Source: Nemertoderma westbladi (Eukaryota; Animalia; Xenacoelomorpha). Taken from it: a DNA stretch of 64,000 bases. Below the pieces are notes generated by a model that did no database searches, was not told the DNA's origin, and saw only the letters and a program-made list of their open reading frames with translations. The DNA lies in NCBI GenBank assembly GCA_032718475.1, contig JAUCBJ010006713.1, positions 36,899 to 100,898 of the forward strand. Direction: 5' to 3'. The translations under genes and the position numbers were made by a program. Of the stretch, positions 8,167 through 60,295 are shown piece by piece (position 1 is the first letter of the stretch; each line of letters begins with the position of its first letter).

Positions 8167-10162
8167 TTAACGTTTACACTCCAAAATTAATTAGTACAAC
8201 GATGGACAGATTGATTAGTCTTACTGTCTTCTGGCAGTCTGGTCTTAGCTCAATCAGTCAATGTAATACTTGGAATATTTAGCAAAGTTTGCTCCGGGCT
8301 TCTGCAGTATCAATTGCAGAAGCCGAACCGAACCGAAATTGCCAAACTTCGGCCCGAACCGAACCGAAGCCGAAGCTTCTGTTGAGCCCTACTCCCAACT
8401 AACTGTGGACTAGCAGTCCCCTGTGTGGCCGTATGTGGTAGCGACTGTCTCACTCTCGGGAATGCACCTGCCGGATTATGTTCGGGTTTAGGCCTGTTGT
8501 ATTCAGCTTTCGGCGCCTTCCCCAAACTATCCTCGCTGTAGACTGGGTCTGTAATCAACTCCGCCTCATAGTTAAGGAACTTTGACATCTCTTCTAGGCC
8601 TGGCTCCGCACCCTTCTTCTCCCGGGTGGAGAAGGCGATCTTTCTCCATTTGTTTCTTAGCCAGATGGGTAGTGCCTGCGCTATTGTGGTGTATGTTATG
8701 TGTATGTTATTCGATGCGTTGAGTTTGTAGGGCGCATCCAGGGTCTTCAGCACAATCAGCGCCTTTTCGACTTTATTCGCAAAAGTCTTGATGCTGACAG
8801 GGTTATCCTGTAGTCCACCTGATGGTATTCCCCTCAAGGTTTGCCGTATGATCTTGGCAGGGTGTCCGAATTCCCTGTCTAGGGCCCACCATGCAGTCGT
8901 GAATCCACCCTCGATACCTTGATACTCCCTTACGATGTCGCACGCTGGGCCCCCTGTGTAAACTTGTAAATATTTTAGGCACTCCGCCTGTGTCAGGTTC
9001 TTTGTCAATATTTCGTTACTGTACATGCGTCGGAATTGCAGATATTCTTCCGGTCTGCTTCCATCGAATTTGAACGGCTCCACTGGTGGCAGCTCGAACC
9101 TGGTCTTAAGCGCATCGATGAGTGTTGCCATTCCCATCGCCTGTACTTCTAGTGGGCTTGATGGATGCTGTACAGACTCCCCTGCTGCTGTGTGCAGTTC
9201 GCCCGTCGGGCCTGTCGACCTCCTCTGCGTCGGATATATCATTGGGGGTAACGGTCCCCTCCATATCTCTGTATCACACGATCTATTCTGGTCCGAGGGG
9301 TTTGGGGTTTTTGCTCCTGGTTGAGTATATTGCTGATATTGTAATGGGAGAAAGTCCCCCCACCGGTGTTATATTTGGTATTGGGGTTGATGTTACCATG
9401 TTAGGGCCCATACACCTATCGGCAATAACTCCCCCCCTCTCCTGGGTATATGTTATGTCCTTGCATGTTATAGTCATACTGGTGTGCAGGTACCGGTACA
9501 GGCCTATCCACCTCTTGCCTACCTACCAGTATGTATGCCGCGACTTCCGGATCTAATCCCGTTGTCCGCGCTATCCTATCGCATACACTATCTCTTCCAG
9601 CATGGCCTATAGTCTGATAGTATGTGCAGTAAGGCCTACAGTATGTCCTGCAGTCTGCCTGTGTCCTTCCGGACCGAAGTTTAATCTTCTCGAATATTCC
9701 AAGAAGTCCTTCCCGCGACTACCGTACTCTCGATCGGCAGCTATGTCCCGTCGGGAAGTTTCTCTTCGATCCCCTCTCCTGTTCTCGTCCTCGCGCCGGT
9801 ACATCCTGTACCCTTCTCCTGGTGTGTGGTATATCTCACCAGGCTGCGTCTCTCCGGGGCGACGGCAACTCGTCTCCCTCTCTCCTCCGTAGTTGACGGC
9901 CGCCCTCCGCTTGGTCTACCGTATCGTCCCTCGTCATCGAATCCGGTGTGGCAGGCCAATACCGTCGTGTCACGGCCTCACGGATCGTTTGGTTGGTGTC
10001 GTCCGGGGTCCGCGGCGGCGTTCTCTCTCCCTCTGATAATCGGGGCTCCCTTTCGCTCATCTTCCTGTCTTTGCAGTCACAGTTTGTTGGCAGTTGGTCA
10101 GTTTATGACTGTGACGGGATCCTAAGATCCCGACCGGGTTAGATTCGTACGCGTCACCATTC

Positions 10163-20709: not shown

Positions 20710-21459
20710 AACCGCTGTCTGTATGCTACCAACCGCTGTCTGTATGCTACCAACCGCTGTCTGTCTGTATGCTACCAACCGCTGTCTGTATGTATGCTAC
20801 TAACCGCTGTCTGTATGTATGCTACCAACCGCTGTCTGTATGTATGCTACCAACCGCTGTCTGTATGTATGCTACCAACCGCTGTCTGTATGTATGCTAC
20901 CAACCGCTGTCTGTATGTATGCTACCAACCGCTGTCTGTATGTATGCTACCAACCGCTGTCTGTATGTATGCTACGAACCGCTGTCTGTCTGTATGCTAC
21001 TAACCGCTGTCTGTATGCTACTAACCGCTGTCTGTATGCTACCAACCGCTGTCTGTCTGTATGCTACCAACCACTGTCTGTATGCTACTAACCGCTGTCT
21101 GTATGCTACCAACCGCTGTCTGTCTGTATGCTACCAACCGCTGTCTGTCTGTATGCTACTAACCGCTGTCTGTATGCTACCAACCGCTGTCTGTATGCTA
21201 CTAACCGCTGTCTGTATGCTACCAACCGCTGTCTGTATGCTACTAACCGCTGTCTGTATGCTACCAACCGCTGTCTGTATGCTACCAACCGCTGTCTGTA
21301 TGCTACCAACCGCTGTCTGTATGCTACTAACCGCTGTCTGTATGCTACCAACCGCTGTCTGTATGCTACTAACCGCTGTCTGTATGCTACCAACCGCTGT
21401 CTGTATGCTACCAACCGCTGTCTGTATGCTACCAACCGCTGTCTGTCTGTATGCTACCA
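20710..21459 (+). repeat. Minisatellite of 21/25-bp units (AACCGCTGTCTGTATGCTACC)
   Basis: More than 30 tandem units. Confidence 0.95.
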
Positions 21460-23992: not shown

Positions 23993-25015
23993 CGCCGCCA
24001 ATCAGGGCCGTTTGAAACGGGATCAGGTCAGCCGCCAGTCAGGGCCGTTTGAAACGGGATCAGGTCAGCCGCCAGTCAGGGCCGTTTGAAACGGGATCAG
24101 GTCAGCCGCCAGTCAGGGCCGTTTGAAACGGGGCCATTATTGGAGAACCATGGTCAGCCGCCAGTCAGGGCCGTTTGAAACGGGATCAGGTCAGCCGCCA
24201 GACAGGGCCGTTTGAAACGGGGCCATTATTGGAGAACCATGGTCAGCCGCCAATCAGGGCCGTTTGAAACGGGATCAGGTCAGCCGCCAGTCAGGGCCGT
24301 TTGAAACGGGGCCATTATTGGAGAACCATGGTCAGCCGCCAGTCAGGGCCGTTTGAAACCGGATCAGGTCAGCCGCCAGACAGGGCCGTTTGAAACGGGG
24401 CCATTATTGGAGAACCATGGTCAGCCGCCAGTCAGGGCCGTTTGAAATGGGACCATTATTGGAGAACCATGGTCAGCCGCCAGTCAGGGCCGTTTGAAAC
24501 GGGATCAGGTCAGCCGCCAGACAGGGCCGTTTGAAACGGGGCCATTATTGGAGAACCATGGTCAGCCGCCAGTCAGGGCCGTTTGAAACGGGATCAGGTC
24601 AGCCGCCAGACAGGGCCGTTTGAAACGGGGCCATTATTGGAGAACCATGGTCAGCCGCCAGTCAGGGCCGTTTGAAACGGGATCAGGTCAGCCGGCAGTC
24701 AGGGCCGTTTGAAATGGGACCATTATTTGAGAACCATGGTAAGCCGCCAGTCAGGGCCGTTTGAAACGGGATCAGGTAAGCCGCCAGTCAGGGCCGTTTG
24801 AAACGGGATCAGGTAAGCCGCCAGTCAGGGCCGTTTGAAACGGGATCAGGTAAGCCGCCAGTCAGGGCCGTTTGAAACGGGATCAGGTCAGCCGCCAGTC
24901 AGGGTCGTTTGAAACGGGGCCATTATTGGAGAACCATGGTAAGCCGCCAGTCAGGGCCGTTTGAAACGGGATCAGGTCAGCCGCCAGTCAGGGCCGTTCG
25001 TAATGGGACCATTAT
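23993..25015 (+). repeat. Minisatellite with mixed 34-bp and ~49-bp units (AGCCGCCAGTCAGGGCCGTTTGAAACGGG...)
   Basis: Tandem array of two interspersed unit variants. Confidence 0.95.
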
Positions 25016-25188
25016 TGTCAACAATGTCACAATGAGTCTAGTGAAATCATGTAATGGTTATATGAAAATGTGAAATATTCGTTTGGATTACACTTGGGGT
25101 ATTTTTCAAATTAGTTGCAGGCGTCTCTGCCACATTATAAGCTATTTACTAATATTGTTATAATTCAATTTTAAATATAATCAGATTT

Positions 25189-26181: not shown

Positions 26182-27875
26182 TTTGTTATTGTATTAATAA
26201 AACCATTAACAAGCAGAATTGTTTTTATTTATAACGAACCTGCAGGCCAGGGTAGTTCTTGGCAAGATTTGAGCCGTTCAAAACACGATGTGGTTATGTA
26301 TATATAGGATAACCATCCAATATCTCAAAAACTCAAGCGGGTACGCAAAGATTTTAAGAGCAAACGAATTTGAACGAAGAGCAAACAAATGAATTTTGGT
26401 TGCGCAGAAGACTGTATACATAGAGAAGGATATACACCCGGCGGTACGACGAGAGAGAGCAAGGTTGCATGAAGTAGAAAACAAAGAGAAAGAGAAACCT
26501 GAAAACCAAGGATGTCGCATTGTTTACGACTACAGAGCCGGCATCGTGTATCGGGATGGTACGATTATTGACCGTTATCAGCCAAAGTTCTTTCAATAGC
26601 ACAGGCCCGACAACAGTCAATACAGTTCTACTAGTATTTATGGTGATGGGAATGATGATAATAGTAAGCCTAATAACTTGTTGAAAATACTTTCTTGGAA
26701 TATAGGAGGTGTAAGGGAAAAATTACTAAACTCCAACTGTCTTAATTATTTACAGAAATTCTTTTTAATTTGGCTTTACGAAATAAAGCCTGGGTATAAC
26801 TGTATCTTGTTCGGGATATCAGAACTCAGCTAAAGATGATCACAGGGGGGGGGGGGGGGGGCTTTTAATAAAAAACTATTTAGTGGGCGACATCGAATTA
26901 GTTGATACTAGTTTCATTGGATTTATATTAGCAAGATTTCATTCACTCGGACAGTACGAGTTTAGCGGCGGTTACATCGAACCAAAAGATTCGCTATTTT
27001 ATGACGATAAATTATGGGGGGTTCTTCAGGGACTTTGCTTAGGAGATAGAGAGAAACGGCTTGTGTTTGGTGACCTTAACGCAAGAGTTTATCATCCGAA
27101 AAATTCGCATGGCCAAGAAGTGGACCGGGTCTGTGACGACGCCTCCTGCTACAAGTGACCTTACTTTCCGAAGAAAAGAAAGGTGGATTAGTCAGATAGA
27201 CCTGTGTTTAGCAAGTAAGTCGGTAAACGAAGATATTGAATTAAAGGTAAATCAAGATTTAACAAAACCTTCGGATCATGCGCCTTTGGAGATATTACTG
27301 ACAACTTCGGGGAATAGAAACTGGAACGGACTTCTACAGCGTTCCCTGCGAATGGGTTCCTCATTCTATGATAAGTACAATCGCAATACCACGGAAACCA
27401 ATTATGTTCAAAGACTGTGAGTGTACCTCGACAAGGGATAGACAGGTCGAAATTTATAGAAGCTTTGGAGCATGACCAAAGAGCAAACGGTTGTCTTCAT
27501 GGAAACATAGGAGACGTCAACGAGGCAGTCAATACTTTAGGAAAACATTTTCAAGACGCAGTTAACTCTTCTAAGATGAAGGCTGGTGTTACCGTAACCA
27601 ATCATTGTAGTGAAAATAACCGATGGGAAAACTTGTTGCTAACGAATGATTCGAAATCTGTTTGGCGCGCCATAAATTGGAATTATACATTTATTATAGG
27701 AAGGGATCTAGGGGTCTTAACCTCGAATGATAAGTTTATTTTACCGAAAATAACTTATCTTTTATTGGCGCAATTGTAGGACTAATCCCATCACATGCGT
27801 ACTTTTAAACCGGGTAGTGTACAAATTTAGGAATCGCGTAATTTTTATTGAAATTAATATCTCATATCTCTCCAA

Positions 27876-27916
27876 ACCACGTACGCGTTTCGACCTTTGG
27901 GTCTCATCAGCGTGGT
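27876..27916 (-). ncRNA. Minimal type I hammerhead ribozyme
   Basis: Minus strand ACCACG-CUGAUGA-GACC(CAAA)GGUC-GAA-ACGCGU-A/CGUGGU: complete catalytic core, 6-bp stem I, 4-bp stem II and palindromic vestigial stem III. Predicted cleavage is after GUA, between 27882 and 27881. Confidence 0.9.
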
Positions 27917-27919
27917 GTC

Positions 27920-27972
27920 GGATTCGAACCTGGGACCTCGAGGTGGAAGCCGAGACTACAACCACTAGGCCA
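27920..27972 (-). promoter_or_regulatory. tRNA-type (type 2) RNA Pol III internal promoter: A box and B box
   Basis: A box TGGCCTAGTGG (27972-27962) and B box GGTTCGAATCC (27930-27920), 31 nt apart. Confidence 0.8.
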
Positions 27973-30095
27973 CAGGTTCTTGATATATGGAGTATTAATT
28001 TCAAAGCCAGCTGCCATTTTATTAGCCCCTGATTTTTTATTATTGATAGTAACAATGTGTTGGCAAGCTGTATTTTTCGAGGTGTTTGTTATTATACATT
28101 TATTATAGGAAGGGATCTTGGGGTCTTAGCCTCGAATGATAAGTTTATTTTACCGAAAATAAATTATCTTTTATTGGCGCAATTGTAGGACTAATCCCAT
28201 CACATGCGTACTTTTAAACCGGGTAGTGTACAAATTTAGGAATCGATTAATGAGTAATGAATTTAAGGAGTAAATCTTAAATCTTGGAGAGATATGAGAT
28301 ATTAATTTCAAGAAGAATTACGCGATTCCTAAATTTGTACACTACCCGGTTAAAAAGTACGCATGTGATGGGATTAGTCCTACAATTGCGCCAATAAAAG
28401 ATAAGTTATTTTCAGTAAAATAAACTTATCATTCGAGGTTAAGACCCCTAGATCCCTTCCTATAATAAATGTATAATAACAAACACCTCGAAAAATACAG
28501 CTTGCCAACACATTCTTACTATCAATAATAAATTGGAATGGCAAACTTGGAGATAACGCTGATGATATCGACAAACCCACCGACGATGAATTTAAGGACC
28601 ATTTTGAGAGTCTTCTGTATAATCAAGGGGATAGCGTAGACGATATTGACACCTCACAGGCTCCAGTTATACCACTCCTGGATGACCCGATACAACCACA
28701 GGAAGTGGACGAGGCGATAAACTCAATAAAAGCGAACAAGGCAGCGCTAGGAATTTCATCACCTCTTTGGAAGGATCTACCAGTGAATATTGTGGTATTT
28801 ATTACATTTATCATACCATATCATATCATTACATATATATATTACATATCATATTGAATGCGATATTCATATTCGGATGCTTAGCGGCAGTTTGGGCATA
28901 TAGCTTATTTAGTATTTTGTATAAAAGAGGTGATCGTTTTAACTGTAACAATTACCGTGGAATCACGATTATGGACTCTCTAGCAAAGATTTATGACTAC
29001 GTTTTAGCGAACAGACTAGTGAGATGGTACAAACAGCCAAGAGCTCAAGCGGGCGGTCAAAAGGAGAGATCATGTTATGAACAGATACTCGCTCTACGCT
29101 TGGTTGTCGATTATGCTTACACCAAGAACAAAAAACTATTCATCATCTTCATCGACTTCAGTAAAGCCTATGATAGAGTCTCTAGGTCCTCTCTTATATC
29201 CAAGTTACTTTTTCTCGGTTGTGGATTTAATATGATTAACGCAATAAAGGCAATATATAGGACGACGTTTTTAATCCTTAGATCAATTGATATTGGTGCC
29301 GACAGCAGTTTGCGTCAAGGAGCGCCATCGAGTTTATTTCTATTCACTCTTTACATTGATGTCCTAGTCGCCATGTTTGATTCACTAACGTCTACTAACA
29401 CATACAGTACCTAGGAGCCTTGCATCTTCTCCTGTTCATGGACGATACTGCTATTTTAGCTGTATCTAGATCTAAAGTTATTTAGTTTCACTAAGTTTAT
29501 ATTTCATAATATGTAATTTCAAACATTTAATGATAATAATGTCTTTTATCGGATATTAGTCAATAAACATATATATATATATATAATTTTTGTGGCGTTT
29601 CAACCACGTGTTCACTGAAAAATAGCGGTTTTGAAACATAAAGTCCAATTTCACCGATTTCAACTCGTCGAGTATGTACCATGTTTTTTATTTGAGATAT
29701 GCAGTCATCTGGGCAAAATATATTTAGCTTCAGAATCTTTTCTAATATCGCCAAATAACGTCGTCAATAACAGAACGTCGCCAAATTTTGTTAGTCCGAC
29801 AAAAAAACGCCCAAATTTGTCTAAAAGAGTAAATTATTGGTTGCAGAATAATATGATTCAACTAGAAAAGCCAGCAAGCTGGCTATAAGGAGACCGTCCA
29901 TAGACAAACGTTGTGTTAGTTGGGTCCCCCTTCATTCATTATCATCAACCTATAACTCAATTGAACGGTCCAGTGCTTACAATTCAATCAGCTGGCCTCC
30001 CACCTAACATAGCAGTGAGTAACCTTATAGATATTCCCATAGGATTCACTGGGAAGAGCTATTCAGCTGGCGAGGTAATACAAACTAACAGTTGA

Positions 30096-31339: not shown

Positions 31340-33115
31340 TTAGTCTTTCTTGCGCGGACGGCGTTTACGCAGTTTTTTAAAGCTAGCAAGAGTCCTTTTC
31401 TCTTTGGGGCGAGCCACTTTACGAGGAGGGCTGTAGCTCCTAGGCGAAGGGTGCAATATAATTGCATCAGAAGGCGCAGGGTTACGATCGGTATACCCGC
31501 CGGTCGAAGTACCTGGTTGATTAATATCAACCTCAGTGGAGCGAGGTCTAACGGCCTTTAGAGCGCGTCTCAGGACAGCAGCTCCTACGGGTACTTGACG
31601 GGTCGTCTGGACACTAGCGGTGGGTGGACCGTGAGTGGTGAGGAACTTTCTCGGTTTAATGGTTCTCTCCAGCTCGCGTTCTCGGGTTCGATATTCATAT
31701 GGTCGCCGAGATATTTCCTGTAGTTCAGGATGCGAGTTCACAAAGATGTCGCCATACTCAGGGTCCTGATGGATAAAATTGATCAGGTGATATGTGGTTA
31801 TATCATTAGGGTTAACGTTTCTAAGGTATTTCCTGACAAACTTGGTGGAAATACACTCACCAACACGCTTCATTAACTCGTAACTTGGTACGCGTGTTTT
31901 CTGTTCAATCGACGCGAATAGATAAGGATGGAATGCGTAAACTCCCTCGTAAGCTCGTCCAGGGTAATAGCGATGTCGGGATTCGCAATGTAAATCCGCG
32001 TTCGCTTCCCAAGCTCGGATGTATCGCAGGGTGATCATCTCGTCTACGCTCTCTAAATCGCGATTAAAGGGACAATTGTAACTTTCATGTCCTTTAAGTT
32101 GACAGTAGTGACATTGAGTCATAAATTGTGGGCAGACGACAAATATATGAGAGTTATTAAGCCGGCAATAAGCACAATATATTTCCATCATCGGTTGTTC
32201 GAGGAAATAGGAACAAGGCACGCTCGAGTCTAGAGGGGTGAAGTGGTCTCTCGATGCGCATAATCGACAACGTTTTCGAGAAACGTAGTTGGCGTGTCGA
32301 TAATCGTACGCTGTGAGACGCTGTGGGCCTTGATACCACTCTATGACATAATCATTGTCACTGCTCCGGGAAGTTGTAGGCTGAATCGCTTCTGATTCCA
32401 AGCACACTGGTTCATCCTCCAGTTGTATAGACGAAGTGGGTGCGTCTGTCTCAGTAAGTGGATCCACTGTCTGTATTTCCACGACAGAATAACCTGTAGG
32501 TATTCGGGGTCTTTGTATAACAGATGAATGTGAGTTCTGTATACAAACGTCTTGAAACACGGCAAATCCAGCGCTACTCAGTTTCTCCGCAGCTGAGTCT
32601 CTAAGACTGAGTTTGGTCAGCGCGCGGTCTTTGAACTGACTATCGACGTTACGGAACGGAGTCAGAAAGCGCCGGAAACATTCGAAACGTATGAACTTAT
32701 TATGTTCGTCTAACTTGGCGAGTTTAGTTCCAAGTATTAACGGGTGAGCGCGTATGGTACGACTGCACACATCGGCTAGCCAACCGGCAAGTGCTGCGTT
32801 TTCAAAGATCGTGTATATAGCTAAGGAAGGGCGAAGTGGAACACTCATAAAGCTATATACGGCACCAGGCGCAGTTAATGGTCCATCAAAATATAAACGA
32901 GAGTAATGATCTCCATATACTTGCTGGTAATTGGTAGGATTTCCAACTTTGAAATTCCATCCATATTCTTGAAAGGCAAGATGTCCGATGGATGTCCGTT
33001 GTACCTTAGTAATGTCGCTGGGTGTATTGGCATACATAGTGCGAAAGAAACCTCGGCCTTCGGCCCAAGGAGCAATCAGCTGAGTATCAACGAAAGGGTA
33101 TGGAATGTTCTCCAT
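31340..33115 (-). CDS. Accessory 591-aa ORF of the Bel/Pao element: three CCHC zinc-knuckle-like motifs and a basic NLS-like C-terminus; function unknown
   Basis: CRLC-x4-H-x9-C, CAYC-x5-H-x4-C, CHYC-x4-H-x4-C; ends KKLRKRRPRKKD; no evident signal peptide or TM segment; lies between pol and the 3' LTR in sense orientation. Confidence 0.8.
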   Translation of the reverse strand: MENIPYPFVDTQLIAPWAEGRGFFRTMYANTPSDITKVQRTSIGHLAFQEYGWNFKVGNPTNYQQVYGDHYSRLYFDGPLTAPGAVYSFMSVPLRPSLAIYTIFENAALAGWLADVCSRTIRAHPLILGTKLAKLDEHNKFIRFECFRRFLTPFRNVDSQFKDRALTKLSLRDSAAEKLSSAGFAVFQDVCIQNSHSSVIQRPRIPTGYSVVEIQTVDPLTETDAPTSSIQLEDEPVCLESEAIQPTTSRSSDNDYVIEWYQGPQRLTAYDYRHANYVSRKRCRLCASRDHFTPLDSSVPCSYFLEQPMMEIYCAYCRLNNSHIFVVCPQFMTQCHYCQLKGHESYNCPFNRDLESVDEMITLRYIRAWEANADLHCESRHRYYPGRAYEGVYAFHPYLFASIEQKTRVPSYELMKRVGECISTKFVRKYLRNVNPNDITTYHLINFIHQDPEYGDIFVNSHPELQEISRRPYEYRTRERELERTIKPRKFLTTHGPPTASVQTTRQVPVGAAVLRRALKAVRPRSTEVDINQPGTSTGGYTDRNPAPSDAIILHPSPRSYSPPRKVARPKEKRTLASFKKLRKRRPRKKD

Positions 33116-34034
33116 ATTCCTGTTGTATGCCTAATATGTTCTCCGACAGCGATGGTAGAGCAGAGGAAAAAACTATTTCGCATTCTAAATATTCAGAAAT
33201 ACGATCTCAGTAGGAGCATTGTTACATTCGAGGACTATCTCCAACTGAAGTTATCCCCAGTGCGGTGAGGGAACAACCAGTTCAATGCCTCAGTTGTTCT
33301 ACAGATTATAAGATTTATATCTCCAATCATTGAGGGAGGTGAACAACCAGATTTATGACACACAATGGTACCAGTTGTTCACCTACTAACTGCGTGTCCT
33401 TTCAGTCCTTGTATCACGGTTGTGGATTTAAGGAAATCCCAGGTGGTTGATTATCTAATCAACAACGAGAGGGTGGAAGTTGATATCATAAATATCAACA
33501 GAATGACACATGGACAGGAGGTGCGGACACCAATATTAGCATACAAATAAACGGTAAGGGGGTGGAGGTTGATATCATAAATATCAACAGAATAAGACAT
33601 GGACAGGAGGTGCGGACACCAATATTAGCATCCAGATTAACAGTAAGGGATGGGATGTTTAGTGCTCGTTTCCCGAAGCTCCGAGCACGTTGGGAAGAGA
33701 AGGTGGGATGAAATATGTCGTATCTTTAGTAACAACATATAAGAGGGTAAGAGGAGTAGAGAGGAGGGAGGATATACGATAGTATCCATAAGATACCACA
33801 ATGGATGTGTTTTCCGTCACATCATCATTCATTCCTGCCTTTTAATTGTGACACTGATCACAATAATTACAGGAAAACGATGAAGGAAGGGAAAGTTACA
33901 GCCTCCCGAAGGAGACTGCCCGAGAGCACCCGTGCCCCGGGGAAAACTATTCACATTATGGACCCTGGACATTAACCCATGTCTCTTTTCCAGTGGTTCT
34001 CCTTTATTTGTTCGCATCAACCTTCTTCCACGTT

Positions 34035-36062: not shown

Positions 36063-38975
36063 TTAAGTTGGGGAGCCCCTAGATGTCGGTTGGATTAGGG
36101 AAGTGGTCGTGGGAAGAGTTTCTTGCCTTCCATAGTTTCCGGAGAGCTCTCTGTCTCTTTCCAGTAAACATAAACGACCCACTGGGCGATTGAGCTGTTG
36201 AGTCTCAAAGACTATCCCTGGTTTCTTAAAGTTACGCCGCATTACGACGAGCTCTACTGATCGCACCAAACCATCGCTCGAGATATGAGTCTCGATGATA
36301 CGTCCTGTTTGCCATCGCTTACGTGGGAGATCGGGGTCCACAATAAGCACCATGTCTCCAGCGCTGACGTTTTCTTGCTGCGCAAACCACTTAGTTCGAA
36401 GTTGTAGAGTGGGCAGGTAATGTTTCTCGAAATGGTCAGCGAAACGACGGGATAGCAACTGCATAAGTTGCCAGGTTCGACGGCAGTACTCGTCTCCGTC
36501 TGTGATCTCCGATCGTGGGAGCATGGCTACGGGCTTCTTCAGTAGAAAGTGCGCGGGTGTTAGCGCTTCCAGGGAATCAGGATTTGAAGAGACTGGCATA
36601 AGCGGTCTTTCGTTGAGATAGGCGGCGATTTCCTCCATTAACGTCCGCAATAGTTCGTCGGTGAGATAAGCGCGACAAGGCACAATAAAGTGGAACGCAG
36701 TCTTCACGCTCCTAATCAATCTCTCCCAACTTCCTCCCCACCAAGGGGCGTCGGCGGCGTTGAAGGTCCAGCTAGACGCTGTTATCCTTAGCTGATCGTC
36801 CACCTGTCTTTTGTTCCAGTCCTTTACGTAAGCTTGAATTTCGTTGTTGGCGCCAATGAAGTTCGTTCCCTTATCCGATCTCATCGTGTTACTGGTTCCG
36901 AAGCGAGCGATCTGTCGTCGTAAACTCAACACGAAGCTGTTGGTGGATAGATCGTTTACCATATCGAGATGGATAGCTCTACAAGTCATACAAACGAAGA
37001 TGACACACCATCTCTTGACTATAGTCCGGGCACGATATACTTCAATAGGGCCAAATAAATCCACACCGGTATTAGTAAAGGGTGGTTCATAGAAGCTTAC
37101 TCTTTCCCTAGGTAATTCTGCCTCTCGCTGTGTCAAAGGCCTACTGAATGCTTTCCTACAGGGTATGCAGTTCCTAAGAACTTGGTTCAGAGCCCTACGG
37201 GGTTTATAAAAATAGTAGCGAGTTCGAATTTCGCTCAGAACTCGTTCTCTACCAGCATGGTACAGTTTGCTATGAACATCTACAATCATCTTGATTTGTA
37301 TGTCAAGATTTCTAATGAGTATGGGAAATTTAGTGTCAAAGGATAATGGGGCGTTGGTCAGCCTACCTCCAACACGTATTAACCCATCTATCATGGTACT
37401 AGAGAAGCGATCCCTTAAGCGCATCTGTGGATTTCTTAACAACAGGAAATACTTATCGGAATCCTCATAACATTGTAGGAGTCTCAGCATCTGTTTGTTG
37501 GTTTCATCATGCTCCTGGTAACTGATCTTCTCCTTTAGAAACCTGTCGGATATCTTGTATTGGGGAAGGTCTTTAACAACATGGACTCGTGCAGATGTTG
37601 ATGGAGCATCATCACTATTGGTCTTTGTCCCGGAGTAACGATGATGAAAACATCGTTTTAAATAGGTGACGGCTTTACAGAGCCGATTCCAGGAGCTGTA
37701 GTGACGTATCGCTCTCTGCAAGAGGGGTGAGAGTCCTTGCGCGATATCTGGTATTCCAGATTTCCAATCCTTGTCACGGATTTCCAAGACTTCTTTAGTC
37801 GTGGCGGTGGGTTTCTGATCCAAAGCATCCTCTCCGGAAGTAAATAATACAGATAGATCAACCGCAGGTTTAAACAACTTCGATTTACTCGCTCGAGTTT
37901 TGGGTTTAACTTTCTCCGCTCCCTTGGCCTGTCTGATTTCTGCTGTTGTGAGATGGGGAGGCCATTCTTCTTCTTCTCTGTAGAGAAAGTCAGGTCCTCC
38001 TAACCATTCGGGAGTATTTACCAATTCCTTTGGAGTCGCTCCCCTGGAAGCGATGTCTGCTGGATTAATCGTTCCGGGGCAATGTCTCCATTGATCCATC
38101 GTCGTGCGACTAAGTATGATGGCTACTCTGTTGGTAACGAAGACGCTGAACTGACAGACTTCATTGGTTATATACTCTAACACGAGTAAAGCGTCGGTCC
38201 AATAGACAGTTTTCTCTAATGGATAGTCAATCTGTTCTGTTACATTCCGGCCGATGGCTGTAGCGTATAGAGCCGCTTTTAACTCCGCTCGAGGAACTTT
38301 CAACTTGTTGTTGATTAATGCCTTAGAAGTAACCAAGGCGACTTTGATTCCATCCGGAGTTTCCACTCTTAGGTAGGCTACTATACCTATTCCCATATCG
38401 CTGGCGTCTCCAAACACATGGAGTTGATAGGAATACGTAGGGAGAACATGACCAAAATATGAACGGGAAATTATAAAATCCTCGATAGCCGGCAGAGAAT
38501 CTTCCCATTCCATCCACTTCTTCAATAATTCTCCCTTAAGTGGATCGTCCCATGAGTGGTTTTCAAGCCACATTTGTTGTACCAAACTACGAGCAATCAA
38601 TATAACTGGGCTAATAAATCCCAATGGATCGAAATAAGTGCTCAGTATACTTAAGCAAATCCGTTTGGTTCGAACTGGATTATCTCGCTGTTTTAGCTGG
38701 AAAAACAGGATATCTCGCTCTGTGTCCCATTTCAAGCCGAGTGTCTTGGTTTCTGGCAGATCATCTTTGATCAAATCGAGATCTTTCGCTCCTCGATCTT
38801 CCGCAGGGATCGACTCCAGAAACTCACGGGAGTTGCTGGTGAATTTCGTTAATCGAAACCCACCTCTTTTTAAGCACTCTACCGTTCCTTTAGCGACCTC
38901 AATGGCTTCCTCAACTGATGGGAGGGACTTCAGATTGTCGTCCATATATATGTCTCTCTTGATGTTGTCGATCAC
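36063..38975 (-). CDS. Pol C-terminal part: RT (YMDD), Pao RNase H/peptidase A17 region, integrase (HHCC and DDE), DUF5641-like tail
   Basis: IYMDD, KTLGLKWD, FDPLGFISP, LHVFGDAS, KVPRAEL, YWTDA, NPADIASRG, H-x4-H...C-x2-C, TGVDLFGP, RSDKGTNF, WERLIRSVK. Confidence 0.95.
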   Translation of the reverse strand: MIDNIKRDIYMDDNLKSLPSVEEAIEVAKGTVECLKRGGFRLTKFTSNSREFLESIPAEDRGAKDLDLIKDDLPETKTLGLKWDTERDILFFQLKQRDNPVRTKRICLSILSTYFDPLGFISPVILIARSLVQQMWLENHSWDDPLKGELLKKWMEWEDSLPAIEDFIISRSYFGHVLPTYSYQLHVFGDASDMGIGIVAYLRVETPDGIKVALVTSKALINNKLKVPRAELKAALYATAIGRNVTEQIDYPLEKTVYWTDALLVLEYITNEVCQFSVFVTNRVAIILSRTTMDQWRHCPGTINPADIASRGATPKELVNTPEWLGGPDFLYREEEEWPPHLTTAEIRQAKGAEKVKPKTRASKSKLFKPAVDLSVLFTSGEDALDQKPTATTKEVLEIRDKDWKSGIPDIAQGLSPLLQRAIRHYSSWNRLCKAVTYLKRCFHHRYSGTKTNSDDAPSTSARVHVVKDLPQYKISDRFLKEKISYQEHDETNKQMLRLLQCYEDSDKYFLLLRNPQMRLRDRFSSTMIDGLIRVGGRLTNAPLSFDTKFPILIRNLDIQIKMIVDVHSKLYHAGRERVLSEIRTRYYFYKPRRALNQVLRNCIPCRKAFSRPLTQREAELPRERVSFYEPPFTNTGVDLFGPIEVYRARTIVKRWCVIFVCMTCRAIHLDMVNDLSTNSFVLSLRRQIARFGTSNTMRSDKGTNFIGANNEIQAYVKDWNKRQVDDQLRITASSWTFNAADAPWWGGSWERLIRSVKTAFHFIVPCRAYLTDELLRTLMEEIAAYLNERPLMPVSSNPDSLEALTPAHFLLKKPVAMLPRSEITDGDEYCRRTWQLMQLLSRRFADHFEKHYLPTLQLRTKWFAQQENVSAGDMVLIVDPDLPRKRWQTGRIIETHISSDGLVRSVELVVMRRNFKKPGIVFETQQLNRPVGRLCLLERDRELSGNYGRQETLPTTTSLIQPTSRGSPT

Positions 38976-38979
38976 TTCC

Positions 38980-41900
38980 TTAGAGAATGGCCTCTCGGTT
39001 GTCCTCTGCAGTGGTACGCACTACCGAACAGGCGTTGGAAGGGCTTGAGATTATCCCAAAGGCCTGGATGGTCATCCAGTACTCCACCGGTTTCTGGTTG
39101 AGGTCTCCTTCGGGCCACCACAGAAATCGTAGACTATCTCGATCCCTATCTAACACCTTGACTTGTAAGAACATGCCTTCTATATCGGAGGCGAAAGCAA
39201 TCGAATATTGTCTCAATCTTAAAAGAATTCCCAACAAAGATTGAAGCAAGTTGGGTCCGGGTAACAATTCAGAGTTAAGGGATTGACCCATGTAAAGAGC
39301 GGAGCCATCAAACACTACTCTCACTTCGTGTGGCTTACCGGGTTTAGGAACGTAATGGTGAGTTAAGTAATACGTTCTTTCAGTCACAGGTGTTTCTTCC
39401 GGTACTCTCTCCGCGTATCCCTTACTAATAAATTTCTCCAGCTGTGTTTGATACATTGCTTTAGCTGAAGAATTAGCCGTAAGGCGTCGATGGAGTTGCG
39501 CGATTCTTTTTTCCGCCAAGGGTCTGTTATTGATGAACTTCGGTTCTTTCTTGCGGAAAGGTAGACCGACTTCATACCTACCTTGATCTTTGAGGAAACG
39601 TGTAGTTGTCTCTTGGATCTGCTTGGCCCTTTCCTCTTCCACCGACAAGGCTTTATCGTAGGAATTGGGCTCTACCGCCTCTTGCGTAAAGAATCGTACG
39701 GCATGTTCATCTCGAGTCTTGGCATTATGACGCTCAATGACGTCATTTAACTCGTCGTTATAAGCTTCTCGTTCAGATGGATAAAGAAGTTGACATAAGT
39801 TCACTTGGTTTTGCCAAGCCTCGTTTTCCTTAAGGAGATCGATGGTATTCTCCTCATCAAAAAGCTGGTGAATGTCGTCGTTATCTGAGGAGTATGGAAT
39901 TCCCTCAGTTGAATCGTCTCCCTCACTAGTATCATCTTCCCATTCACTCACCTGGCAGACGTTCTCTTGAGGTAGTCTTTCTCTGAGTGTTCTACGGGAA
40001 GGGCCAGTAAAGTACCAACCTACTCTAGTTCTTACCGCATAGGTCTGTAGGGGCTGCGGTTGAGCAGGCCGTTTCTCTAATGTCTCCAGCGCCTCATGCG
40101 CGTTTTGGCCGATGAGTATTTGCACTCCAGGATAATCAGTCTGGAATCGAGGTATCTTAAGATGTTGGATACTCTCATCCTCGTCCCAATTATAAAGGTC
40201 TGCTTGAGTAGTAGCGAAGTTCTTTATAGCCACCATTTTCACTGACCTTATGCTATGTTCTCCTAGTTCGTCCTGGGGGGTGGACAACGCGCCTACATAA
40301 TAATCAGCTGTTACTGTAGATTTCCAAACTTGCATAATGCCGGACATGTTGAGCTTAGTTCGGAACTTGGGTTGTCCACTGAATATGTCTTCGGCTAGTT
40401 CTTTATCAATGAATGTTCCTGTACTACCGGAGTCAAGGAGGGCGTTCACTACATAACTCCTCTTAGGTCCGTGAACCCTTACTTGCACCACAGGAAACTC
40501 TCGGATCCCTACATTGGAAGATGGCTCTTTCCAAGATGGTTGTCGTTCAGAAGTGGTTAGAGTGAAGTCGCTGTCTGTATCCTTTTCATATGTGAGTGCT
40601 CGATACACTGCGGTATTTATCATGTAACAGGATTCGTTTTCGTCGGAGAACTCGTCTGTATAGAATCCTTCCATCTCAGATTGATCAGTGTCGTTCACAT
40701 CACTGAATTGGACATGTAGCTCGGAATCACTTACCTGATTCGGACTATTTCGCTCGAATTCAGCGTGCAACAAGATATGATGTTTCGCACCACACTTTGC
40801 ACACCTTATGTCAGAGAAACAGGTTCGCCGTTGGTGTCCTTGTCTGAGGCAATTATAACATAACCGCTTATCCCACATGACTTCTCGTCTCTCCGATAAT
40901 GATTTCTTCAGGAATTCATCACACATATTCAAACGGTGGGTCCCGTCACACAACGCACATTTCGGTTTGATGTTACTTACCTTATTTTGAGTCACATTGT
41001 GTACACTTGCCTTTTCTTCGGGCTTTCTCACCGGAATTCTCTTGGGAGACGTGGGAGGAGTTTTTCTTATCGGTTCTCTCCTGTCATTTGCTCGAGACTT
41101 GAATTTACTTACCTGATCTTTAGGCATTTTATTGACATAATAAGATCTCTCAGTGTCTTTCCCGCTATCTTCTCCTTGAGAAGTCTGGCTTTCGCCGTCG
41201 TCTGTATAACACACTGGTGTTACCTTTCTCCTAGAGACGGGTTTTTCACTTACCTTGTTTTCCGGTGTCTTCTCTCTGGACAGTTTCAGGAGCTGTAATT
41301 TCACTTCTCCATCGAGGAATGACATGAGATCAGCCATGGTAGGGTCTCGTCGTTGCTGTTCCATCATATATAACACTTTCTTATCCCAGCGTGTACCTAC
41401 TCCACCCTTCGGTAAAGTAGAAGCCACTGCTCTAATAACCATAGTGTTCTGATACTCATGAGACTTACCTAGCCAATCTAATTGTCTGCAGATCTCCTGG
41501 ATCTCATCGGAAAACTCGATAATTCCGCTACTAATAAACTTTCGGGGCGCTACTAACTTTGCATACAAGTACCCAGCGATATTATTCCTATTACCATACC
41601 TGATGTTTAGTGTATCCCAAACTTGTCTTAATCCATCTGGATGTCCAATAAACTTTAACGCCATTAACTTGGGAGATCCTTCCAAGCACTCGATGAGGTA
41701 TCTAAGTTTTTCTCCATTAGATAGTACAGAGTTCTGTATGTTATCTTTGTAATATTCATTAAAAGGTAACCATTTCATCTCATCTCCATTGAACTTGACG
41801 ATCTCTCCCACCTTTACCGCTTGCCGGGCTTCGGTTCTAGCCATTTGACGCGTAAAACTTTCTTGGGCCATCGTGTTATTTAATATCGAGTTATCGGTAT

Positions 41901-44256
41901 ATAAATTTCTCGGATTATGATCAGTTCTATGTGGAATATCATTATCAACAGGTCTATAATTACCCTTAATAGGGTTCACTATAGGAGTTTCTACTTCGCT
42001 AGCAGTATATATGCGTGTAGGCTCCACACCTTGCGCATGCGATACTTCAGACCTAACAGGTTGACACATTGTTACAGAGGGTGGTGGTATACCCTTTTGA
42101 GTATTTACTAATTTATCGCGTTCTAGCGCGATACTTTGCTGCACTTCTTGCAACTCTAGCCTACTTTCCCTTACTGTGCCCTTGAATTGCTGGACAGTCT
42201 CCTGCATCTGCCCGAGCAGGATATCCATCCCCCGCCGTCTCTCGTCCACCCATTCGACCGCCGAAGCGGGAGTCGCCAACGTTGTAGCGGGCGGACGAGG
42301 GACAATGGGCGACAAATTATGAATATTTCGCTCGGGGTCCAGGACCTGAACTGTCTCCGGGGCAGTTCTACGGGGCACAGGTAGCTTAGTGCTATGCAGA
42401 GGGAATTTAGAGGTAACTTCAGGGAGTACAGGTGTGTCTATCACCGAAGGGGTGATTTCGAGAACAGGCCTAATTATTTCAGGCTCATCTACTATAGTAG
42501 GGAGTCTTTCTATTTTAATTATTTGGTCTGTGGGTTCTGTACTACCTAAGTTGGTGTTATTTAGTTGCCTTCTAACAGCTGGAGGCAAGTCAGGCAATTT
42601 CTGACGGTGGAATGTTCTTTTACGTCTACTTAGACGAGATCTATTTCCCTTGCCTTCAGTATCGGTGGTATCGCCTTCCTCAGATGATGTATATCCCTGT
42701 CTTTTGGGAGTAGATCGATTCATCATCTGCATATTACTAGCTGTTAACTGTTTATTTATGCAGTCTTGATTCTCCTGAATGTTTTCCAATTCTAATTGGG
42801 TGGTTTCTTCAGTCGCTCTCCGTTCGGCTTCTGCCACTGCCTCTGCGGCCTTTCTCTCAGCCTCGGCCGCCTTTGCTTCTGCCGCTGCCGCTGCCGCTGC
42901 CGCTGCCGCTGCTGCTGCCGCTGCCGCTGCCGCTGCCGCTGCCGCTGCCGCTTTTGCCTCTGCCGCTGCCGCTGCCGCTGCCGCTTTTGCCTCTGCCGCT
43001 GCCGCTGCCGCTTTTGCCTCTGCTGCTGCCTCTGCCGCTGCCGCTTTTCTTTCTACTTCTGCAGCTACCACTGCTGCTTTCTTTCTGTCTTCTATACGTT
43101 TTTTCTTTACTTGTTCTTCTTGGGCTCGTGTGATGCGGAGTTGTTCATCAAATTCAGCCTGGTTCGCAGCCCTCATTTCCACATCGATGGCATCCAACAC
43201 AAGCTTGGTTCCTTCACTATTAGGGCTAAGTCCCTCTAACCTTCTCCTCAACTCGTCATCACCTAAAAAACGTTGATAGTCTGACAGATAGATGTCAATG
43301 GCATCCCTCTTATGCGGCTTCTCTGCCATCGCTTCACTTTCCACTTGGGAAAAAGTAGCGTCTGTTGATTCTCCATGGGTTGAGCGCTCCTCTAGCTGAG
43401 CTTTCCACTGAGCTGTTCCTTGAACCTGGAGACTCACCCTTTGAAACCAAGTCTTTACGGCAACTTGCAACGACGTGTCTTGCCTTCGTTTAGAAGCCTC
43501 CTCAAAGGCCGATAATATTAGCCTGATTCGTAGAATTCTTTCTCTCACTTGATAAAGCAGTTGTCCCTGCTCTTGAGGTCCTTGTGGTTGTTGAAACAGT
43601 TGTCCTTTTACTCGCTCCATAGAGCTGAAGAATCCCTGTGCGTATCCGGCTGCGGACCTCTTCCACACAGCGGGATCTATGGTTTCTTTGGCTACTCCCA
43701 TCTGGTGTATGTCTTCCCAGGCAGCTTCTGATAAATCAAACGGGAGTCCGGGTCCGGGGAAGTTCCATTGCGACTCGACCATGGACTTCAGTTCTTCCCT
43801 TGTGTATCCAGCATAACTATCTCTAGTTGAACGCTGGCTTCTCGCCCAATCGATCTGGTGTTCTTCCACAGCGATCAATAACCTGGTGAGTACGGCTGCA
43901 GGAAGGATGAGAAGGGGATCCGTATAAACCGCATCCGTCATCTTTGCTCCGCGCTCGGGTGTCAGCTCTACAGTATCTTCACTACTGGAGCTGTTGGGCC
44001 GTTGAGAAGTAAGTTCTTGGCTCGCGGGTTGTTGCTGTTCTGCTGCTTCTTGGTCCCGCTTGACCTGAGCTCGAGTGCCTATGATAGACCTACGATGTTG
44101 GACCAGCCTAGGTTCGGTTATTACTACAGGAGGGATGACCTTCCTCACAGTGGGAGGTGAACTGAACTTACGACTAGACGGTTCTACGCCTCTATCTGAG
44201 TCGCAGATAGTTACATCTAATAAACTGTCTGACAGGTTCTGCTTAGTATCAGACAT
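38980..44256 (-). CDS. Gag-protease-RT N-terminal part of the polyprotein (1758 aa), separated from the rest by a 1-nt frameshift
   Basis: DUF1759-like FNGDEMKW...EKLRYL, three Cys/His knuckles (CALCDGTH, CYNCLRQGH, CAKCGAKHH), LLDSGS protease, RVVFDGS, GPNLL, SDIEGMFLQV. Confidence 0.95.
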   Translation of the reverse strand: MSDTKQNLSDSLLDVTICDSDRGVEPSSRKFSSPPTVRKVIPPVVITEPRLVQHRRSIIGTRAQVKRDQEAAEQQQPASQELTSQRPNSSSSEDTVELTPERGAKMTDAVYTDPLLILPAAVLTRLLIAVEEHQIDWARSQRSTRDSYAGYTREELKSMVESQWNFPGPGLPFDLSEAAWEDIHQMGVAKETIDPAVWKRSAAGYAQGFFSSMERVKGQLFQQPQGPQEQGQLLYQVRERILRIRLILSAFEEASKRRQDTSLQVAVKTWFQRVSLQVQGTAQWKAQLEERSTHGESTDATFSQVESEAMAEKPHKRDAIDIYLSDYQRFLGDDELRRRLEGLSPNSEGTKLVLDAIDVEMRAANQAEFDEQLRITRAQEEQVKKKRIEDRKKAAVVAAEVERKAAAAEAAAEAKAAAAAAEAKAAAAAAAAEAKAAAAAAAAAAAAAAAAAAAAAAAAEAKAAEAERKAAEAVAEAERRATEETTQLELENIQENQDCINKQLTASNMQMMNRSTPKRQGYTSSEEGDTTDTEGKGNRSRLSRRKRTFHRQKLPDLPPAVRRQLNNTNLGSTEPTDQIIKIERLPTIVDEPEIIRPVLEITPSVIDTPVLPEVTSKFPLHSTKLPVPRRTAPETVQVLDPERNIHNLSPIVPRPPATTLATPASAVEWVDERRRGMDILLGQMQETVQQFKGTVRESRLELQEVQQSIALERDKLVNTQKGIPPPSVTMCQPVRSEVSHAQGVEPTRIYTASEVETPIVNPIKGNYRPVDNDIPHRTDHNPRNLYTDNSILNNTMAQESFTRQMARTEARQAVKVGEIVKFNGDEMKWLPFNEYYKDNIQNSVLSNGEKLRYLIECLEGSPKLMALKFIGHPDGLRQVWDTLNIRYGNRNNIAGYLYAKLVAPRKFISSGIIEFSDEIQEICRQLDWLGKSHEYQNTMVIRAVASTLPKGGVGTRWDKKVLYMMEQQRRDPTMADLMSFLDGEVKLQLLKLSREKTPENKVSEKPVSRRKVTPVCYTDDGESQTSQGEDSGKDTERSYYVNKMPKDQVSKFKSRANDRREPIRKTPPTSPKRIPVRKPEEKASVHNVTQNKVSNIKPKCALCDGTHRLNMCDEFLKKSLSERREVMWDKRLCYNCLRQGHQRRTCFSDIRCAKCGAKHHILLHAEFERNSPNQVSDSELHVQFSDVNDTDQSEMEGFYTDEFSDENESCYMINTAVYRALTYEKDTDSDFTLTTSERQPSWKEPSSNVGIREFPVVQVRVHGPKRSYVVNALLDSGSTGTFIDKELAEDIFSGQPKFRTKLNMSGIMQVWKSTVTADYYVGALSTPQDELGEHSIRSVKMVAIKNFATTQADLYNWDEDESIQHLKIPRFQTDYPGVQILIGQNAHEALETLEKRPAQPQPLQTYAVRTRVGWYFTGPSRRTLRERLPQENVCQVSEWEDDTSEGDDSTEGIPYSSDNDDIHQLFDEENTIDLLKENEAWQNQVNLCQLLYPSEREAYNDELNDVIERHNAKTRDEHAVRFFTQEAVEPNSYDKALSVEEERAKQIQETTTRFLKDQGRYEVGLPFRKKEPKFINNRPLAEKRIAQLHRRLTANSSAKAMYQTQLEKFISKGYAERVPEETPVTERTYYLTHHYVPKPGKPHEVRVVFDGSALYMGQSLNSELLPGPNLLQSLLGILLRLRQYSIAFASDIEGMFLQVKVLDRDRDSLRFLWWPEGDLNQKPVEYWMTIQAFGIISSPSNACSVVRTTAEDNREAIL
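42836..43075 (-). repeat. In-frame (GCGGCA)n expansion encoding a poly-alanine/AEAK tract in Gag
   Basis: Plus-strand GCTGCC hexamer array; the frame is preserved. Confidence 0.9.
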
Positions 44257-45569
44257 GTTTATGTATACAGTTGAATGTCTACTGCTGTATTACAGTCTGA
44301 GCAAGTCTAGTAATTCAGTATTAACTGCTAGCCTAGTAATTAATTACCGGTACTGCTACTCAGTGCAGCGTGATATATATAATATATTAGAATACCGGTA
44401 TGCTTATAGTATATATAACTATTATTACAGACTAGGTTTATCAACGAATACCGGTATAATTTTAGCACAAATATATATAAATATATAATAGGCCTATCGG
44501 GAATACCGGTATACAGCTGACAGTTTGTAGTGTATATATAAGTATAATTATTAACTGAATTAATTACAGAATACCGGTATGATTTCAGCACAAATATAAA
44601 TATTATAATAGGCCTATCGTAAATACCGGTATATCAATTATTTTAGAATAATTGAATTTCTGAACTTTAGGGTTACTTGGTTACTTTAACTTACTTTATT
44701 ACCGTTATTTAAGCAGTAGTCCAACTGATATTGAGACCTAATTGTTATATGGTAGGCCTACTATTTATAAATCGTTAGATTTGATTTATAATATATATAT
44801 ACCCGTTTTAATGGGTTTAGTCAATGTTTGAAATAAATGTTATTATTTCTGGGGTTAATCACTACACAAAGCGGTACGCTTTCAGTGAAGTGTTACGTAC
44901 AGGACACTAAAACAAATGATTCTAATTTACCTAAGTTACTTAATACTACAAATTACGTACAATTCGGGTGAGATTACAATCTCTAAATAAACACAAAAAT
45001 TTACAAAACACAAAATACGAATTTTCAGGGTAATTTTACAAGAAGTCTACAAACCAGTCTAACAAAGGGTTAGTATCTGGTTATTACAACGGACAGGGTA
45101 CTGCGGTATTTGAAAATAATACGTAGTAGTAAATACACTGCGTTGTCCAGATAGGAAAATACCACCGCCTGACGACCTATAGCCGTATCGCTACAGGTAC
45201 TACGTTATGTATCACGGAGTGTTCCTACCTAGAAGTTAATAGAGCTAATCGAACGTGCCTATCAACCACTTTACAACACAAATATAATGCCTACTAATTA
45301 CTTTCGGAAAGCACTGTACACTAAACCCTAAATTAGGTACGAGTACTTGTATAACATATAATCTGTAGTTAAATATACTTGAACAGCTAAAAGAACCACG
45401 GCATCTGCTGGAGTGACCGATGCACAAAATCACCAGTCTTTACCTACGCCAAGCAGCCCGTGTAGTACCGGGGTTAATTTAACTATAGCGGTATGTATAA
45501 CAAACACAATTACTGTAGGAACAAACTTGGGGAATGAATGTTGCGAATAATCGCATAAACTCTGAATAA

Positions 45570-47689: not shown

Positions 47690-48415
47690 TATGGAACGAA
47701 ATGACTTTATATTAACAGTTCTCTATAGCCAATGGAACGAATATAGCCAATGGAACGAAATGACTTTATATGAACAGCTCTTTCTAGCCAATGGAACGAA
47801 AGGGCGTTATATGAACAGTTATATCCAATGGAACGAAAGTACTTTATTGTTCTCTATAGCCAATGGAACGAAAGGACTTTATATGAACAGTTCTCTATAG
47901 CCAATGGAACGAAAGGACTTTATATATTAAGAGTTCTCTATATAGCCAATGGAACGAAAGGACTTTATTGTTCTATATAGCCAATGGAACGAAAGGACCT
48001 CATATGAACAGTTATCTATAGCCAATGGAACGAAAGGACTTTACATGAACAGTTCTCTATAGCCAATGGAACGAAAGGACTTTATATATTAACAGTTCTC
48101 TATATAGCCAATGGAACGAAAGTACTTTATTGTTCTCTATAGCCAATGGAACGAAAGGACCTCATATGAACAGTTCTATATAGCCAATGGAACGGAAGGA
48201 CGTTATATGAACAGTTCTCTATAGCCAATGGAACGAAAGAACTTTATTGTTCTCTATAGCCAATGGAACGAAAGGACCTCATATGAACAGTTATCTATAG
48301 CCAATGGAACGGAAGGACTTTATATGAACAGTTCTCTATAGCCAATGGAACGAAAGGACTTTATATATTAACAGTTCTCTATATAGCCAATGGAACGAAA
48401 GGACTTTATATGAAT
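47690..48415 (+). repeat. ~34-45-bp minisatellite (TAGCCAATGGAACGAAAGGACTTTATATGAACAGTTCTCTA)
   Basis: Tandem array of variable units. Confidence 0.93.
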
Positions 48416-60117: not shown

Positions 60118-60282
60118 TTTGCAATCAAGAAACGATATTAATACAAACTGATACTCATAAAATTATTTTTGTTGAGATAAAGTGAGCAAGAATACCTGTA
60201 ACGTGGCAGCCAGTTAGTTAGGTAAAAGTTTTGTAGACAATAAATTACCGATACTAGATAATAAATATTTTGTTGCTTGTGT

Positions 60283-60295
60283 GTAACCTAGCAAC
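60283..60295. promoter_or_regulatory. RFX X-box in the DRC1/RCCD1 divergent intergenic region
   Basis: GTAACC-T-AGCAAC fits GTNRCC-N0-3-RGYAAC; ~165 bp upstream of the DRC1 ATG. Confidence 0.65.

Follow-up and report, generated by a model that had tools for sequence, protein, structure and literature searches.

A tRNA-like head joined to a type I hammerhead motif in a high-copy repeat of Nemertoderma westbladi, a candidate parasite of Penelope-like elements

The insertion and its surroundings

The window, i.e. the whole 64,000-nt stretch of DNA that was analyzed, carries a LINE-like element whose frame is interrupted by 856 bp of inserted DNA flanked by a 12-bp target duplication, and the hammerhead motif described below is located inside this insertion (Table 1). 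An empty-site joint, 27671->28528 with 12 letters fitting either side, was found in contigs of the sequencing runs X1 and X2. It represents either another allele or another LINE copy; since its left flank differs from the window at 14 of 257 bases, the latter origin may apply. In the window comparison, the LINE shows no similarity to the element outside the element itself. Neither a reverse transcriptase nor a GIY-YIG frame is present inside the insertion in the ORF list.

Table 1. Coordinates of the element, its predicted parts and its host sequence in the window
Feature	Position	Strand	Basis or remark
A box	27972-27962	minus	motif scan; without listed variant at at least 1% in the family
B box	27930-27920	minus	motif scan; without listed variant at at least 1% in the family
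Spacer, 3 bases between B box and stem I	27919-27917	minus	
Type I hammerhead motif, whole	27916-27876	minus	motif scan and Rfam
Hammerhead stem I, 5' strand	27916-27911	minus	
Hammerhead CUGANGA box	27910-27904	minus	
Hammerhead stem II	27903-27892	minus	
Hammerhead GAAA and ACGCGU palindrome	27891-27883	minus	
Predicted hammerhead cut	between 27882 and 27881	minus	
Hammerhead stem I, 3' strand	27881-27876	minus	
Predicted extended stem I, 27922-27918 (last three B-box bases and two more) with 27875-27871	27871-27922	minus	fold prediction
tRNA-like head	27920-27979	minus	collinear with tRNA positions ~1-60; ends at T loop, without 3' acceptor strand
T4 run, possible Pol III terminator	27750-27747	minus	sole run of at least 4 T on the unit sense strand
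Enclosing helix, 5' arm	27982-28005	minus	inverted repeat; upstream of predicted Pol III start
Enclosing helix, 3' arm	27847-27870	minus	inverted repeat
Listed 5' boundaries	27843, 27848, 27863, 27875 and 27876 (possibly one locus), 27881, 27896, 27956, ~27978, 27982	minus	
Target-site duplication (12 bp), left copy	27672-27683		direct repeat; 83% AT
Target-site duplication (12 bp), right copy	28528-28539		direct repeat
Direct arm, ~1.4 head-to-tail units, ending at 3' end site A without tail	27684-28245	minus	repeat spacing 409
Filler at arm junction, ~38 nt	28246-28283		arm comparison
Inverted 5'-truncated arm, running through the tail to site B	28284-28532	plus	inverted repeats
A/C-rich tail, 57 nt, between 3' end sites A (~28092 = 27683) and B (~28036)	28036-28092	minus	loose ends with diverse flanks
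Host LINE-like reading frame left of insertion (not element)	27375-27671	plus	in register with the right part after subtracting 856 bp
Host LINE-like element right of insertion, decayed reverse-transcriptase domain	28528-29414	plus	RVT_1 E 1.3e-13

The inverted arm begins 6 nt past the predicted hammerhead cut. On either side, the insertion terminates in a 3' end of the unit, but not at the same site: the tail is present in the inverted arm and missing in the direct arm. A or C occupies 40 of the 57 tail positions, and no stable stem-loop is predicted for the tail (-1.5 kcal/mol). The three partial copies within the insertion differ at 4/192, 3/153 and 5/153 bases, implying a young, though not entirely fresh, insertion.

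According to the accessible text of two reports, insertions of Penelope-like elements (PLEs) consist of a partial tandem and an inverted truncated copy with a tail at one end (Craig et al., PMC8557442), and, in vitro, a PLE protein makes nicks in both strands of AT-rich DNA and extends them (Frangieh et al., PMC11167929). In the latter, the cDNA starts at two internal sites, the interval between them being the AC-rich tail. The present insertion has the whole footprint, i.e. a partial tandem, an inverted 5'-truncated copy, a one-sided tail and two 3' end sites. The tail length counts against the fit, with 57 nt compared to the 30-40 bp published for PLEs. Mobilization of the repeat by a PLE is, in our judgment, highly probable.

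The tRNA-like head, the duplication of 12 bp and the presence of a LINE at the insertion point would also be expected of an ordinary LINE-mobilized tRNA SINE, or perhaps of a locally amplified satellite, carrying the hammerhead by chance, and the SM-alpha repeats of schistosomes have been classed as a SINE. We find this very improbable, because the head is internal rather than 5'-terminal, the insertion ends at unit 3' ends on both sides with no A-rich, simple-repeat or LINE-derived 3' tail, and the LINE, given its lack of similarity to the element, is the target and not the source of a shared tail. A satellite is further opposed by the dispersed insertions with diverse flanks.

The coding capacity of the unit is small. 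The longest ATG frame on the unit circle has 36 codons, and the ATG in the hammerhead opens just 15. Rolling-circle translation, considered since 411, the common unit length, is divisible by 3, was rejected on the former value. The 36-codon frame (28016-27906, minus strand) has its ATG just past tail site B and runs through the head to stop codons in the hammerhead; it is possibly a relic of the start of a helper ORF, or a product of chance. Rfam matches to microRNAs and snoRNAs at 28129-28359, all far under the gathering scores, were discarded as effects of the inversion hairpin or of chance.

Several other features are found in the window. A second, unrelated head with A and B boxes at 4219-4150 (minus strand), followed by a motif repeated near 4090 and 3950, is probably a tRNA-derived SINE or pseudogene. 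A BEL/Pao-type LTR retrotransposon at 36063-44289 (minus strand; gag-pol frames of 985 and 1769 codons; Pfam Peptidase_A17) includes a run of alanine codons formed by a microsatellite. Another gag-like relic lies at 8310-9368, and a 596-codon frame at 31340-33130 (minus strand) contains Cys/His knuckle-like motifs. Three host genes, each seen as a single long frame, at 55422-61992, namely a Ras-family frame of 434 and a sperm-tail NYD-SP28 frame of 790 codons by Pfam and a 434-codon RCC1-like frame by eye, suggest an intron-poor animal genome. The two Pfam-identified proteins and the Pao-type element are in keeping with an animal host. Young satellite arrays are located at 23994-25017, 20710-21446 and 47742-48414, with units of 37/52/89 bp, 21 bp and ~41 bp, respectively.

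The tRNA-like head and the hammerhead motif

On the minus strand, the A box and the B box are followed after 3 nt by a hammerhead core, so that the fusion of promoter boxes and ribozyme reported in the initial annotation is found at its positions. Both boxes match the consensus perfectly and are spaced as in tRNAs. The window has a single strict A+B box pair, and none arises in 200 shuffles of the window or 20,000 of the unit; a relaxed pattern occurs 0.34 times per shuffled window.

The core, stems I and II and an open end in stem I identify the motif as a type I hammerhead. No other hammerhead core in the window has its stem II paired; the relaxed cores of the window number six. The initial annotation had proposed a comparison with the Rfam hammerhead models. 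Hammerhead_1 aligns to the motif over the full model (positions 1-45) with 28.9 bits and an E value of 8e-5, which supports the assignment, but the score is under the gathering score of 34. Nothing anywhere in the window reaches an Rfam gathering score. Stem III is reduced to the palindrome ACGCGU next to GAAA, as had been described. The label 'minimal' is not appropriate, since helix I of 6 bp, helix II of 4 bp and a short palindromic helix III correspond to the 'canonical' metazoan type I and not to the 'min-HHR', as the types are defined in the available part of PMC4209133.

Stems I and II are predicted with pair probabilities of 0.9-1.0 in short and circular constructs; for stem I the values go down to 0.4-0.85 when the linear construct is longer. 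The extended stem I is predicted with a probability of 0.96 in the short construct and 0.41-0.84 in the longer linear constructs. Stem III has a predicted probability of 0.00 in the monomer, and in the two-copy cofold a strand-swapped double hammerhead is the energy minimum (-42.7 vs -33.6 kcal/mol). At the level of predicted folds, these values are consistent with the dimer-type hammerhead suggested previously, and they favor cleavage as a dimer and a cut-to-cut RNA.

A long helix could enclose both the head and the hammerhead, with 21 bp in the window copy and 23 bp with the majority alleles, both of which add pairs missing from the window copy. Its score is matched in 14 of 1000 shuffled units and thus is modestly unusual; the fold of the circular unit has a z of -2.7 against 100 shuffles. 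Because part of its sequence lies upstream of the predicted Pol III start, this helix would be possible only in a read-through, cut-to-cut or circular RNA.

The head was not called as a tRNA by Rfam tRNA or ARAGORN. Comparison with 161 distinct tRNA calls from 149 loci yields near ties of Cys, Arg, Glu and Asp as the parent, and the segment between the boxes has no advantage over shuffled sequence in its match to known tRNAs (42 of 200 shuffles were equally good). In blastn against phages, only 40-nt matches at E 0.4 were obtained, and all 15 matches listed (of 18) lie on tRNA-Gly. The loop could be read as carrying a Gly TCC anticodon. The head is predicted to fold as a rod, with a probability of ~1.0, and not as a cloverleaf. 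Such a rod would free the end of the B box, so that stem I becomes extendable by 5 bp.

The possible terminator that had been placed ~130 nt downstream was located 132 nt past the predicted cut. It sits 230 nt after the predicted Pol III start and ahead of both 3' end sites; therefore, a productive Pol III transcript has to read through it. The number of T runs in the unit, one against 1.5 expected, does not significantly indicate avoidance.

The B-box-plus-hammerhead pattern matched two viral and nine metagenome sequences, and no homologue of the element was found among them. All 11 matches were rejected, as they adjoin intact tRNA or tRNA-like genes in apparently prokaryotic or phage contigs; the pattern itself forces the matches to be adjacent to tRNAs. 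The exact hammerhead core pattern has no match in the viral sequences. The nine metagenome matches (L003-L011, noted together with L002) all lie in tRNA clusters, where the core is a few bases past the T arm of a tRNA or tRNA-like gene. Several of these motifs fold with closing stems I and III, and none of the pattern-matched motifs in L002-L011 reaches the Rfam gathering score. L005 has a second hammerhead above that score, and a GOLLD RNA. The motifs may process the transcripts of their clusters; no paper on hammerheads beside tRNAs in such clusters was found in the literature searched.

Abundance, uniformity and common form of the family

The window stretch is present in six of the nine sequencing runs listed, from four studies and none recorded as RNA, and X1, X2, X4 and X5 were compared. 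In X1, most of the unit has a summed contig depth of 2.7e5-8.2e5, and across X1 and X2 the unit has 1e5-8e5, i.e. ~1000-fold higher than the ~60-330 of the flanks in these two runs. Summed depth is not copy number, but it implies thousands of unit copies. The reading of the initial annotation, a non-coding mobile family, is supported, and the family is young, abundant and built of head-to-tail units.

Only 13 substitutions and 4 indels over the 409 nt occur at a frequency of at least 1% in any compared run. Since the family is nearly uniform, conservation of the boxes is uninformative on selection, and covariation is likewise absent. Contigs across 27900 have a summed depth of 52,696 in X1 and 44,953 in X2, of which 52,415 and 44,494 (~99%) carry two extra loop II bases at this position. 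The proposed unit of ~409 nt with a 4-nt loop II thus holds for the window copy, but ~99% of the depth has a 6-nt loop II and a 411-nt unit. The loss of 2 nt from loop II in the window copy probably weakens loop-loop contacts.

The head-to-tail junction is seen in the 1.4 units of the window and in a closed contig of X4. This one contig of 441 nt (411+30 nt) is self-closing at a depth of 13.8, in a run whose RNA type is guessed and which bears another organism label; circular RNA or tandem DNA both fit, and it could be trace DNA. The window copy holds one complete hammerhead, and short-read contigs are blind to array length. In X1 and X2, the loose ends of contigs, whose flanks are diverse, gather at 27681-27690 and 28038-28040, corresponding to both ends in the window, and those at site B show an agreement of 0.43-0.45, i.e. 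differing flanks.

Sense 5' boundaries with at least 50 unmatched bases beyond were found at 9-10 distinct loci among the matches listed, a biased subset of 43 out of several thousand that was chosen by length in X1 and X2 and read post hoc. Among these matches, two or three loci have their boundary no more than 6 nt past the cut, and for two it is at most 3 nt from the predicted start at 27979.

In contigs of the sequencing runs, head and hammerhead have about the same depth as the remainder of the unit, so the head is integral to it. Some contigs in X1 and X2 share the hammerhead core without the head (loose ends at 27897), which fits a head that was captured later. A diverged locus in X1 and X2, matching 27821-27982, shares the head, the hammerhead and 60 nt, and then continues into 869 nt of other sequence. 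It is a candidate for a sister family or a helper.

The latter locus is also what one would expect if the unit served as pLTR, the terminal repeat, in a PLE that is autonomous, codes for protein and has a tRNA-type promoter, and if the copies seen were truncated products inserted in cis. The layout of the insertion equals that of truncated PLE insertions, and the further contigs that share the core alone point in the same direction. Nevertheless, we regard this explanation as decidedly improbable: both the window and X4 show a closed unit of 409-411 nt, the depth does not drop between tail and head, the poor agreement of the loose ends at site B reflects varied flanks and not one common ORF start, and the ATG of the hammerhead leads into the short frame of 15 codons only.

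Proposed propagation and comparison with known systems

We conclude, with somewhat better than even confidence, that the repeat is a non-autonomous parasite of PLEs, i.e. a non-LTR retrozyme, which is likely to be copied by the PLE enzyme and likely to be transcribed by Pol III from a captured tRNA-like head. That the head contains a working Pol III promoter appears fairly likely.

The tRNA-like piece could instead be a passenger or a structural insert in a PLE-mobilized retrozyme whose RNA arises by read-through from another polymerase. Animal retrozymes seem to be promoterless and to rely on read-through, at least in the available text of PMC7761336, and the T4 run precedes both 3' end sites. 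In addition, the enclosing helix would require sequence upstream of the predicted Pol III start, and the predicted rod of the head may lend bases to stem I. This reading is unlikely in view of the two perfect consensus boxes at tRNA spacing and the high amplification of a family that carries them. The two loci among the matches listed that begin near the predicted start weakly argue in the same sense, and SM-alpha, by analogy, may serve as a precedent for Pol III use.

If the favored explanation, a PLE parasite with its own Pol III promoter, is correct, a tandem or partial-tandem copy would be transcribed by Pol III from about 27979-27982, with partial read-through of the T4 run, where termination by Pol III is presumably leaky. 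Next, two hammerheads joined by their palindromes would cut, and the resulting cut-to-cut unit would have the promoter at the 3' end. The RNA ends might be kept together by the long helix, and a host ligase may close the circle. Subsequently, the PLE protein would nick both strands of AT-rich DNA, with cDNA made from site A on one strand and from site B on the other. Two-site priming at a 12-bp staggered cut would result in a long direct arm and an inverted arm with filler between them, and copies retaining more than one unit would retain a promoter upstream of a full template. The earlier term 'self-transcribing' needs a qualifier, because the cut monomer loses its 5' promoter; a full unit would be obtained only from tandem or partial-tandem copies reading past T4. 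As far as the accessible texts go, hammerhead cleavage is dispensable for PLE insertion in vitro (PMC11167929), and eight of nine predicted Xenopus retrozyme dimers did not cleave (bioRxiv 10.64898/2026.07.22.740005).

The present family is a candidate answer to two questions on animal retrozymes, namely what transcribes them and what mobilizes them. A short, young and uniform element offers a test case for the capture of Pol III promoters by PLE parasites; it also bears on whether hammerhead-cut RNA is the template in vivo and on whether SM-alpha-type 'SINEs' depend on PLEs. We can imagine, though we would not yet expect, a class of 'Penelope SINEs', Pol III-driven PLE parasites in which the B box acts both as promoter DNA and as stem I RNA, with SM-alpha as a misfiled member. 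Such a class, if real, would be the PLE counterpart of SINEs with their LINE helpers and of TRIMp3 with their LTR helpers.

The comparison with SM-alpha made in the initial annotation is apt, since in both cases Pol III boxes precede a type I hammerhead in a tandem-prone unit. In the sources on SM-alpha, as far as they are available, tandem units in which a hammerhead follows a Pol III promoter (PMC6765202), the boxes A and B (PMC2576457) and a link to tRNA-Gln (PMC2770079) are described, and the repeat is also treated in PMC8490949, PMC6155905 and PMC8293314. SM-alpha and Sj-alpha thus resemble the present element in a unit of a few hundred bases with boxes A and B ahead of the hammerhead; SM-alpha also has its promoter at the 3' end after cleavage, so that its propagation needs tandem copies. 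By description rather than by sequence, the units differ in length (~335 bp vs 411 here), and SM-alpha is classed as SINE-like without a named helper in these sources, whereas the present element has the marks of PLE insertion.

Animal non-LTR retrozymes share non-coding, AT-rich, head-to-tail units of ~150-450 bp, type I hammerheads and long target duplications with the element, in the available text of PMC7229834 and bioRxiv 10.64898/2026.07.22.740005. They are expressed as circles in coral, mussel and axolotl according to the former, and the latter proposes that they derive from PLEs as non-autonomous elements. Unlike these apparently promoterless retrozymes (PMC7761336, in its accessible part), the present unit includes A and B boxes joined to its stem I. 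The same preprint takes two hammerheads as the mark of an 'active' retrozyme; the window copy has one and does not qualify.

Endonuclease-bearing PLEs, such as Poseidon_Ac, exhibit the same partial tandem with an inverted truncated copy and a one-sided tail, a hammerhead upstream of two A/C-rich 3' end sites and an AT-rich target in the portions available of PMC11167929, PMC8557442 and PMC4209133. They differ from the present element in that the latter has no ORF and a tail longer than theirs. For Penelope, the accessible descriptions give an internal pLTR promoter, in contrast to the tRNA-type boxes found here. The TRIMp3 elements Helenus, Ajax and Cassandra have a captured tRNA- or 5S-derived Pol III promoter inside the repeat, which likewise does not take the fold of the parent RNA, but they are LTR elements with a primer-binding site and a polypurine tract and, in the available text of PMC10886601, without a hammerhead.

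Taken together, the element shows the testable features of retrozymes and of PLE insertions, and it lacks those of LINE-mobilized SINEs and of autonomous PLEs. No description of a tRNA-headed, PLE-mobilized hammerhead element was found in the literature searched, which lacks most subscription papers and Repbase. Every component has already been described, and therefore the element is not a new kind of system. The layout of a promoter followed by a hammerhead is known from SM-alpha; what is new is the presence of a head with Pol III boxes and of evidence for PLE insertion together in one element.
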